A stretch of 64,000 nt of DNA from Flavobacteriales bacterium (GTDB lineage: Bacteria > Bacteroidota > Bacteroidia > Flavobacteriales_F > PHOS-HE28): positions 356,712 through 420,711 of the forward strand of contig JADJXH010000004.1 of assembly GCA_016715895.1 (NCBI GenBank). Direction: 5' to 3'. Below are positions 32,691 to 33,714 of the stretch, one piece after another (within the stretch, counting starts at the first letter, position 1; every line of letters starts with the position of its first letter). Position numbers and translations under genes: made by a program. The notes beneath the pieces are model-generated. The model was not told the origin of the DNA, ran no database searches, and saw only the letters and a list, made by a program, of their open reading frames with translations.

Positions 32691-32764
32691 GGGGAATTAG
32701 CTCAGCTGGCCAGAGCGCTTGCATGGCATGCAAGAGGTCACCGGTTCGACTCCGGTATTCTCCA
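32691..32764 (+). tRNA. tRNA-Ala (anticodon GGC)
   Basis: Cloverleaf by hand: acceptor GGGGAAT/ATTCTCC with the G3:U70 alanine identity pair; D-arm GCTC-AGCTGGCC-AGAGC; anticodon arm CTTGC-ATGGCAT-GCAAG (anticodon GGC); T-arm ACCGG-TTCGACT-CCGGT; discriminator A. Confidence 0.9.
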
Positions 32765-33714
32765 CCCAAGGCCGCTTCCCTGTGAAGCGGCCTTTCCGTT
32801 GATGGCAGCGACCACCTCCGTTCCAAGCAGCGCCTCCGTGGATCGCCATCACGTGTCTCCTGGATCTGTTCCTTGCCCGGCACCCGCACGGGACTTGGAT
32901 GCATCATGTCCTGGGCAAGGTCCCGCCCAGCTGGCCAGAGCGTCCCGCACCACGTGCGGGAAGGTCACCGGTTCGACTCCGGTATTCTCCACCCAAGGCC
33001 GCTTCCCTGTGAAGCGGCCTTTCCGTTGATGGCAGCGACCACCTCCGTTCCAAGCAGCGCCTCCGTGGATCGCCATCACGTGTCTCCTGGATCTGTTCCT
33101 TGCCCGGCACCCGCACGGGACTTGGATGCATCATGTCCTGGGCAAGGTCCCGCCCAGCTGGCCAGAGCGTCCCGCACCACGTGCGGGAAGGTCACCGGTT
33201 CGACTCCGGTATTCTCCACCCAAGGCCGCTTCCCTGTGAAGCGGCCTTTCCGTTGATGGCAGCGACCACCTCCGTTCCAAGCAGCGCCTCCGTGGATCGC
33301 CATCACGTGTCTCCTGGATCTGTTCCTTGCCCGGCACCCGCACGGGACTTGGATGCATCATGTCCTGGGCAAGGTCCCGCCCAGCTGGCCAGAGCGTCCC
33401 GCACCACGTGCGGGAAGGTCACCGGTTCGACTCCGGTATTCTCCACCCAAGGCCGCTTCCCTGTGAAGCGGCCTTTCCGTTGATGGCAGCGACCACCTCC
33501 GTTCCAAGCAGCGCCTCCGTGGATCGCCATCACGTGTCTCCTGGATCTGTTCCTTGCCCGGCACCCGCACGGGACTTGGATGCATCATGTCCTGGGCAAG
33601 GTCCCGCTCAGCTGGCCAGAGCGTCCCGCGCCACGTGCGGGAAGGTCACCGGTTCGACTCCGGTATTCTCCACCCAAGGCCGCTTCCCTGTGAAGCGGCC
33701 TTTCCGTTGATGGC
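32704..33714 (+). repeat. Tandem array, about 4.5 copies of a 227-bp unit (first unit 225 bp, includes the 3' two-thirds of the genuine tRNA-Ala). Each unit holds a tRNA-Ala 3'-half pseudocopy, the terminator hairpin and the ttgATGGC motif
   Basis: ORF table shows identical 127-aa/76-aa ORFs at 227-nt spacing (32873, 33100, 33327, 33554). Direct reading confirms identical units; the last one has 3 SNPs. tRNA-like segment is agctggccagagcg-tcccgcaccacgtgcgggaa-ggtcaccggttcgactccggtattctccaccc. Confidence 0.9.
32769..32791 (+). terminator. Stem-loop GGCCGCTTC-cctgt-GAAGCGGCC followed by TTT, directly 3' of tRNA-Ala (repeated in each downstream array unit)
   Basis: Perfect 9-bp inverted repeat with 5-nt loop and a short T-tract, seen in the sequence. 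Confidence 0.5.

Follow-up and report, generated by a model that had tools for sequence, protein, structure and literature searches.

Why should a single tRNA gene be followed by a run of near-identical, tRNA-like fragments that extends into the start of the next gene? This question is raised by a 64-kb stretch of a Flavobacteriales genome (contig JADJXH010000004.1; the whole stretch is called the window below), in which a tRNA-Ala(GGC) gene and a fructosamine-kinase-family gene are bridged by a head-to-tail array of 227-bp units. The most probable answer, to which we assign a likelihood of roughly two in three, is that the array is a recently amplified relic, lacking an open reading frame (ORF), of a cassette that joins tRNA-Ala(GGC) to a small GIY-YIG nuclease gene elsewhere in Bacteroidota. 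The argument is carried by the anatomy of the array, the hairpin that it shares with intact cassettes, the occurrence of intact cassettes and arrays in syntenic positions, the copy-number polymorphism of the locus, and the lack of both an ORF in the unit and an integrase nearby.

The array runs from the variable loop of the tRNA gene to the fifth nucleotide of the kinase ORF, the first nucleotides of which (ATGGC) lie in the last partial unit. Tandem Repeats Finder (TRF) reports it as the single long-period tandem repeat in the 64 kb, and a repeat search returns spacings of 227/227/227, which together bear out the head-to-tail arrangement described in an earlier, sequence-only reading of this DNA. 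Neither further array units nor dispersed copies are present elsewhere in the window. Each unit comprises, in order, a 72-nt block, a spacer of ~105 nt, a degenerate tRNA 5' part (TGGGCAAGGTCCCGCCCAGCTGGCCAGAGCG) and a 19-nt arm (TCCCGCACCACGTGCGGGA) that stands in for the 17-nt anticodon arm. The D-loop block, replaced arm, T-arm with 3' acceptor strand, hairpin and ATG-bearing end listed in the sequence-only reading are all found in place, and the motif CCGTTGATGGC occurs in five copies, the last one ending at 33714. Distances between units are 0, 0, 0 and 2: three units are identical and the last full unit carries two substitutions (33608 C>T and 33630 A>G), not the three counted earlier, while the final partial unit of 72 nt shows no difference as far as 33714. 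The spacer resembles that of one relative alone, L009 (z 89).

The tRNA-like portion of each unit, termed a pseudo-tRNA here, is not called by ARAGORN and has no Rfam match at E <= 1; Rfam detects nothing beyond the true tRNA. In the predicted fold there is no acceptor stem, and the 7-nt anticodon loop gives way to an 8-bp stem closed by a triloop, which replaces the 6-bp stem and 7-nt loop proposed before. The copies had also been taken for 3' halves unable to fold; those in the window indeed cannot fold as tRNAs, but they retain a decayed 5' acceptor strand (GGGCAAG, corresponding to an intact GGGGGAT in relative L010) and so extend beyond 3' halves. The substituted arm forms a signature hairpin placed between GAGCG and AGGTC, and in its last copy the A>G change yields a G-T pair. 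A second, terminator-like hairpin with a G+C-rich stem of 9-11 bp recurs five times; its tail (TTTCCGTTG) falls outside the T rule of a strict terminator scan, which gives no call because the stem runs into the T tract. An equivalent hairpin lies 3' of tRNA-Ala in every relative examined, and the array version belongs to the type found as the native tRNA-Ala terminator in L003 and behind the pseudo-copy in L010.

ORFs of 75-127 aa that run through the array were considered and rejected as coding sequences: the period is not divisible by 3, the tRNA-like part is read through along with the rest, and Pfam returns no match for them. Each 75-codon ORF ends in a TGA that overlaps the next ATG (TTGATGG; 33023-33033 and equivalents), the last such junction being the kinase start; this has the appearance of translational coupling, although duplication of the region around the ATG is the simplest explanation for it. 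The proposal that the last copy supplies the start codon of the kinase gene stands in part. The ATG at 33710 does lie in the repeat, but relatives without an array start at the same codon, and the repeat therefore overlaps the kinase start without creating it.

Comparison of close relatives reveals that alleles with and without copies are interleaved among them: the window has four units, L009 at least two, L010 a single copy, and L001, L002 and L003 none. In L003 (78% nucleotide identity), the tRNA and an array-type terminator are followed by an unrelated 170-nt spacer and the kinase gene. In L001 and L002 (95% and 86% identical in the kinase gene), the tRNA module is inverted; the inverted module, comprising promoter, gene and terminator, spans 1-123 in L001 and 5800-6000 in L002. 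This inversion, together with a terminator resembling that of the GIY-YIG cassettes, indicates that the locus rearranges in more than one way. L010 (85%) carries the tRNA with a different terminator, 54 nt of intervening sequence, one full-length tRNA-like copy with a substituted arm, and the kinase gene, and it is the copy that holds the native-type terminator, whereas the true tRNA there has another. The L010 copy, to which the window pseudo-tRNAs are homologous, folds as a cloverleaf with an 8-bp triloop hairpin (-38.3 kcal/mol, z -2.8) and is called tRNA-Val(CAC) by ARAGORN. A role for such pseudo-copies as a mistranslating tRNA-Val(CAC) with alanine identity was rejected because the supposed anticodon loop closes into the 8-bp stem and triloop. 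The full-length copy indicates that the pseudo-copy predates the array and began as a complete tRNA duplicate. Moreover, the units of L009, an independent metagenome-assembled genome (MAG) whose flanking genes are 94% identical, show eight fixed differences from the window units, with 0 differences among themselves, against 0-2 nt within the window; units that are alike within a genome and different between genomes point to recent amplification or homogenisation. The comparison of one versus many copies among relatives, proposed as a check in the sequence-only reading, gives 0, 1 or at least 2 units, and that reading was right to regard the locus as recombinationally unstable and recently amplified.

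The intact counterpart of these units is found in other Bacteroidota. When metagenome contigs were scanned with 29 nt from the T-arm and acceptor of this tRNA-Ala, 120 loci were obtained. L030, L039, L058, L097 and L125 each have a small ORF between two tRNA-derived copies, and in the downstream copy a TCCCG-loop-CGGGA hairpin replaces or interrupts the anticodon arm. The ORF encodes a GIY-YIG domain (Pfam PF01541, E 1e-12 to 1e-17) with invariant catalytic residues Y6, Y17, G19, R27, H32 and E64. Among the 120 loci, which were retrieved by the tRNA 29-mer alone, a profile built from nine cassette ORFs identifies this ORF in 16, always on the tRNA strand and adjoining the tRNA. ORF or hairpin copies are present at about 22, or roughly one in five of the tRNA-Ala(GGC) loci sampled; this is a minimum, since contigs often stop at the tRNA. 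The protein family comprises more than 6,700 members at E <= 1e-5, 81-87 aa long and annotated just as 'GIY-YIG nuclease family protein'. The solved structures closest to the profile are the UPF0213 (YhbQ-like) proteins 1zg2 (9e-11) and 1ywl (7e-9), followed by SLX1 (about 1e-3), which share its size and domain-only architecture. Searches of PHROGs, PADLOC and NCBIfam with the cassette ORF gave no informative match.

The cassette is ordered as tRNA-Ala, terminator hairpin, GIY-YIG gene of ~84 codons, TCCCG-loop-CGGGA hairpin, variable loop, T-arm, 3' acceptor strand and terminator, and it is self-flanked by direct repeats of about 70-110 bp. In L134, for example, the last codons of the ORF (ATC AGC TCA GCT GGC TAG) are the tRNA D-arm itself, stop codon included; they are followed by AGCG, the hairpin TCCCGCACAGCGTGCGGGA, the variable loop, the T-arm, the 3' acceptor strand and a terminator, with a unit period of 347 and a different terminator in the last unit. 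The direct repeat of L149 runs past the terminator, 22 nt into the start of the next ORF, which parallels the end of the window repeat at ATGGC. The 72-nt block present five times in the window is comparable to the direct repeats of L097, L134 and L149. Across all fetched loci, TRF detects hairpin-copy arrays with periods of 73-347 at at least 12 loci.

Synteny ties these cassettes to the window. In L058, an intact cassette with the hairpin TCCCGCACCGCGTGCGGGA lies between tRNA-Ala and the orthologue of the window kinase gene, and the window hairpin, TCCCGCAC-NNN-GTGCGGGA, has the same design as, and a near-identical sequence to, those of the cassettes in L058, L134, L097 and L149. Loci of the cassette protein P0164, from related Flavobacteriales MAGs, have the left flank polyphosphate kinase (PPK) - universal stress protein (Usp; minus strand) - tRNA-Ala, and the assemblies hold one, two, three (L134) or four (L136) tandem intact cassettes with a period of about 347. 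Exact look-up of six cassette proteins placed tRNA-Ala(GGC) directly upstream in each locus except L131, where no tRNA is called and the first unit is garbled. The same-strand 3' placement overlapping tRNA-Ala(GGC) recurs in L030, L058, L097, L134, L141, L142 and L149, and one cassette locus, L141, lies in the complete genome of Pontibacter russatus (CP047984.1). The neighbouring genes are many and different, not specifically the kinase. Intact elements thus do occupy the homologous locus of relatives (L058, L131-L140, L149), a finding that the sequence-only reading had linked to a simple excision scar; such a scar is not what is seen, because intact cassettes themselves form arrays of 2-4 copies. 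Its view of the copies as target-type tRNA duplications left by an inserted element is upheld.

Two further arrangements were observed at tRNA-Ala loci. In L056 (2131-2386), L057 (3374-3687) and L073 (1-226), the functional tRNA is preceded by tandem arrays of 5' partial tRNA-Ala copies without an intervening ORF; these copies consist of the acceptor 5' strand, D-arm and hairpin arm, are truncated after AGGTCACC and have periods of 73, 95 and 99 nt. A second cassette type is present in L021 (~1480-1880), L061 (~250-650) and L090 (~11080-11470, all in tRNA-strand coordinates), where a tRNA-Ala 5' fragment with a CCCGCCCG...CGGGCGGG hairpin in its D loop precedes an ORF and a complete tRNA-Ala(GGC). 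The ORF of this type, upstream of the tRNA, belongs to a different GIY-YIG subfamily with the C-terminus ...KSSAGRRWRK.

The TCCCG...CGGGA hairpin is found in all cassette loci, and its upper stems covary. The 23 distinct inserts between TCCCG and CGGGA add 56 stem pairs, compared with 14.3 +/- 4.2 in shuffled inserts (maximum 30 in 2000), and at least eight pair combinations occur in the upper stem. Selection, or else the way in which it arises, therefore maintains the hairpin or palindrome. A single extra pair, in the last unit of the window, is G-T, and the loops are not known stable RNA tetraloops. TCCCG...CGGGA hairpins are also located in the T loop of partial copies in L014 (~2700-2770) and L056 (~2480-2530, downstream copy) and in the D loop of a partial copy in L073 (~70-100; tRNA-strand coordinates), so that the hairpin behaves like a module capping tRNA loops.

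The window array shares with the cassettes the 3' overlap with tRNA-Ala(GGC), the hairpin-substituted copy, the direct repeat and the variable tandem iteration. A GIY-YIG hidden Markov model run on six-frame translations finds no match in the window, L009 or L010, and with no ~84-aa ORF in its unit, the array is classed as an ORF-less derivative and not as an intact member. On this reading, the nuclease ORF (~250 nt) would have been lost in the window lineage, or about 105 nt of unrecognisable DNA would have taken its place. Cassette units could expand and contract through unequal homologous recombination or template switching between repeats of ~70-110 bp (~72 bp in the window), possibly stimulated by nuclease-made breaks, by analogy with the phage nuclease SegB. 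The 227-bp unit would have been amplified to four copies and homogenised very recently, with the true tRNA kept whole on the 5' side of the array and the start codon of the kinase gene retained on the 3' side. The three identical units may reflect a very recent expansion of a C-bearing variant, as the last unit, L009 and the true tRNA have T at that position. The window copies are most likely non-functional DNA, the practical effects of which would be instability of the locus and four extra hairpins between the sole recognisable promoter and the kinase gene.

Several observations weigh against this reading or narrow it. The spacer (105-115 nt) shows no significant similarity to the interiors of intact cassettes or to the GIY-YIG profile in local alignments with shuffled controls (z <= 2.4), and it is the architecture of the locus that suggests descent from an ORF-bearing unit. 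The covariation of the stem implies selection on some function, and to call the copies a non-functional relic may be too dismissive. In the sequences read, the G+C content of the ORF follows that of the host by eye, and long residence fits this at least as well as frequent horizontal spread. Finally, copy numbers derive from assemblies, several of which are visibly noisy.

That an assembler looped through a single or double unit would agree with the identity of three units, with the long-read-type homopolymer indels of the window and with the state of related assemblies at the same spot: the first unit of L131 (560-830) is garbled, L148 has a run of N (~1350-1450), both right after tRNA-Ala, and many short-read contigs end at that point. 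Cassette arrays systematically break or degrade assemblies. An artefact, which the sequence-only reading had named as a possibility, is nevertheless very improbable here. The exact Usp protein of the window is encoded on three short-read contigs from other runs of the same strain, and these stop exactly at the repeat start (...GCAAGAGGTCAC or ...TATTCTCCA), the expected de Bruijn effect of a real repeat. Between the window and one of these contigs, L145, there are 2 mismatches in 3995 nt and two single-base homopolymer indels; such indels are the mark of a long-read consensus, and an array of 1 kb is normally within the span of long reads. Private substitutions are present in the last unit, one of them matching the L009 state, and the independent assembly of L009 has at least two 227-bp units in the corresponding position. 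The array is real, and its unit number of four is an assembly count. An origin as an integrase attB/attP scar, or by serial site-specific integration, is more improbable still. Fragments left by integrating elements beside intact tRNA genes are well known, and a partial copy downstream of an intact tRNA is their usual signature (PMC9897764); like such scars, the present copies are partial, non-functional and sometimes miscalled by gene finders (ARAGORN reports the L010 copy as tRNA-Val and the L030 copy as tRNA-Cys). Unlike them, the block starts in the D-arm, and the identity is interrupted by a 19-nt hairpin-forming substitution of the anticodon arm and then resumes; the units form tandem series of 73-347 bp (227 bp in the window) without multi-kb cargo, and the only cargo seen with the signature is the 84-aa GIY-YIG gene. 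None of the 10 flanking ORFs has an integrase domain in the Pfam scan, which also detects no tyrosine or serine recombinase and no element remnant among them. Viral contigs contain neither the hairpin signature nor the tRNA 29-mer nor a close relative of the ORF, and a hairpin-signature scan of metagenome and viral contigs returned no match. The integrase origin put forward in the sequence-only reading is accordingly unsupported.

Two other explanations accept the tRNA-derived architecture and assign it a different cause or role. The array may be a non-autonomous element amplified in trans by a GIY-YIG nuclease encoded elsewhere, much as a miniature inverted-repeat transposable element depends on a transposase, with copy number driven by breaks. 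Such dependence is made conceivable by the frequency of ORF-less hairpin-copy arrays (L011, L056, L073 and L094, plus upstream-of-tRNA arrays in L018 and L057), by the size of the protein family and the possibility of several ORF copies at one locus, and by the tandem amplification of tRNA segments that the phage GIY-YIG enzyme SegB drives (PMC13096335). It is still unlikely, for the 64-kb window contains neither a GIY-YIG ORF nor dispersed unit copies, and 72-bp direct repeats suffice for RecA-dependent amplification without a nuclease. A functional RNA or regulatory leader, whether a tRNA-like small RNA in each unit or an attenuator or processing site tuning kinase expression, appears rather improbable. 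The conserved, covarying hairpin, the single variant pair of the window (a G-T, which pairs only as RNA), the full cloverleaf of the L010 copy, and the stretch free of promoter motifs between the tRNA promoter and the kinase gene, which would allow an effect on the kinase in cis, would all suit an RNA. However, the window copies lack an acceptor stem and escape both ARAGORN and Rfam, with no matching Rfam family; among the 57 extra stem pairs a single one is G-T, and the loops resemble no known stable RNA tetraloop. Close relatives L001, L002 and L003 manage without any copy, and the genes beside which hairpin copies and the GIY-YIG ORF occur together are many and varied, not the kinase in particular. 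The small-RNA array suggested in the sequence-only reading likewise finds no support.

A wider proposal, which we advance tentatively and consider possible though doubtful, is that the hairpin-capped tRNA copy and its ~84-aa SLX1/UPF0213-like GIY-YIG protein constitute an undescribed class of tRNA-Ala(GGC)-specific selfish element with a wide distribution in Bacteroidota, of which the window array would be a non-autonomous derivative amplified in trans. In such a scheme, a structure-sensitive, domain-only nuclease would cut the palindromic anticodon-arm DNA of the tRNA gene, and repair from an occupied allele would copy the cassette with the conserved tRNA halves as homology arms. The hairpin would make the duplicate immune to cutting, or would itself be the recognition structure, and repeated cutting of the still-intact tRNA copy would drive tandem arrays. 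Homing of this kind is plausible on circumstantial grounds, namely the intact catalytic residues, the target duplication and the patchy presence among relatives; it gives no account, however, of why the intact tRNA copy would be spared.

That GIY-YIG genes occur among the tRNA genes of phages is well established. SegB is described as a site-specific GIY-YIG endonuclease residing in the tRNA clusters of T-even phages (PMC2330249), and it promotes tandem segmental amplification of a unit composed of a tRNA and a truncated segB copy through microhomology between the tRNA and the 3' end of the gene (PMC13096335). As with SegB, the cassette GIY-YIG gene adjoins a tRNA gene, and the 3' end of its ORF is the tRNA D-arm itself. 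Unlike phage SegB, the cassette proteins are ~84 aa long, consist of the catalytic domain only, are chromosomal in Bacteroidota and lack a PHROG match, and SegB loci are without the hairpin-substituted tRNA copy. SegB is also much longer than the cassette ORFs. If the nuclease targets the tRNA gene, the cassette would represent a chromosomal counterpart of SegB-driven tRNA amplification. The array resembles RecA-dependent amplification in that the period equals the direct-repeat distance, the units are near-identical and copy number differs between close relatives, and it departs from generic RecA amplification in that a specific element provides the repeats, which are found again at a single tRNA throughout the phylum. 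To our knowledge, no function is assigned to UPF0213 proteins, and the searchable literature holds no report that we could find of tRNA linkage, target duplication or array formation for UPF0213 or SLX1 proteins; the association described here would, if the nuclease does target the tRNA gene, give UPF0213-type stand-alone GIY-YIG proteins their first biological context. Similarly, no description of a chromosomal, phylum-wide tandem cassette of a ~84-aa GIY-YIG gene and a hairpin-substituted tRNA-Ala(GGC) was found in a literature whose full-text coverage is incomplete. The recurrent Bacteroidota association is of a tiny GIY-YIG gene fused to a hairpin-substituted tRNA-Ala(GGC) duplicate, often in arrays of 2-4 copies. 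Pseudo-copies of this type should not be annotated as tRNAs or phage attachment sites, and the locus is flagged as a copy-number-unstable region that breaks short-read assemblies.

Table 1. Features of the tRNA-Ala(GGC) locus, in window coordinates.
Feature	Position	Strand	Evidence or remark
227-bp tandem array, 4.3 units	32735-33714	+	TRF: period 227, 99% matches, score 1946
72-nt direct-repeat block (variable loop, T-arm, 3' acceptor strand, hairpin, CCGTTGATGGC)	32735-32806	+	first of 5
72-nt block, further copies	32962-33033, 33189-33260, 33416-33487, 33643-33714	+	
Terminator-like hairpin GGCCGCTTC-CCTGT-GAAGCGGCC	32770-32792	+	first of 5
Terminator-like hairpin, further copies	32997-33019, 33224-33246, 33451-33473, 33678-33700	+	
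Spacer in place of the GIY-YIG ORF of intact cassettes	32807-32911	+	repeated at 33034-33138, 33261-33365, 33488-33592
Pseudo-tRNA 1 (decayed 5' acceptor strand GGGCAAG, D-arm, substituted arm, variable loop, T-arm, 3' acceptor strand)	32912-32991	+	
Pseudo-tRNAs 2-4	33139-33218, 33366-33445, 33593-33672	+	
Signature hairpin TCCCGCAC-CAC-GTGCGGGA replacing the anticodon arm	32943-32961	+	also 33170-33188, 33397-33415, 33624-33642
Functional tRNA-Ala(GGC)	32691-32764	+	ARAGORN; Rfam RF00005, 64.2 bits
Putative Bacteroidetes-type promoter of the tRNA	32629-32657	+	pattern search: TTTG 32629-32632, TAnnTTTG (TATCTTTG) 32650-32657
Usp gene, left syntenic anchor	31745-32569	-	Pfam PF00582
Fructosamine-kinase-family gene, 294 aa	33710-34594	+	Pfam PF03881, E 5e-77

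The gene at the head of the array (Table 1) is a genuine tRNA-Ala(GGC), as originally stated, and a whole-window scan identifies it as the sole tRNA gene of the 64 kb. It has a G3:U70 pair and discriminator A73, and CCA is not gene-encoded. The TTTG/TAnnTTTG pattern in front of it, which follows the established consensus of Bacteroides promoters, is a putative promoter here; TAnnTTTG occurs once between 32500 and 33800, in front of the tRNA, and from there to the kinase gene the pattern search of this interval finds no further promoter motif. The promoter block is conserved in L003, L009 and L010.

The gene order in the window, whose organism has 70% G+C and belongs to the Flavobacteriales to judge by the kinase homologs, is PPK - Usp (minus strand) - tRNA-Ala - kinase (plus strand), and the PPK-Usp-tRNA-Ala order is common to L002, L003, L131-L138 and L145. 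Nearly all homologs of the kinase are also 294 aa long, and an exact-sequence look-up of the window kinase protein returned no record. The two single-base homopolymer indels relative to the short-read contig L145 lie at 28884 and 30625. Between them they split the PPK gene, with its N-terminal domains in the 28190-30898 frame and its C-terminal domains in the 29224-31740 frame, and also break the DUF6272 reading frame in the window; these indels are probably long-read consensus errors, not marks of pseudogenes. Downstream, a tandem repeat of CATGTGCT (~10 copies, period 8/16) occupies 36667-36748, just upstream of a minus-strand 660-aa ORF, and a perfect 16-nt tandem unit, GGGAGTCCTCTGAGTC, is present in 3.1 copies at 38790-38839.

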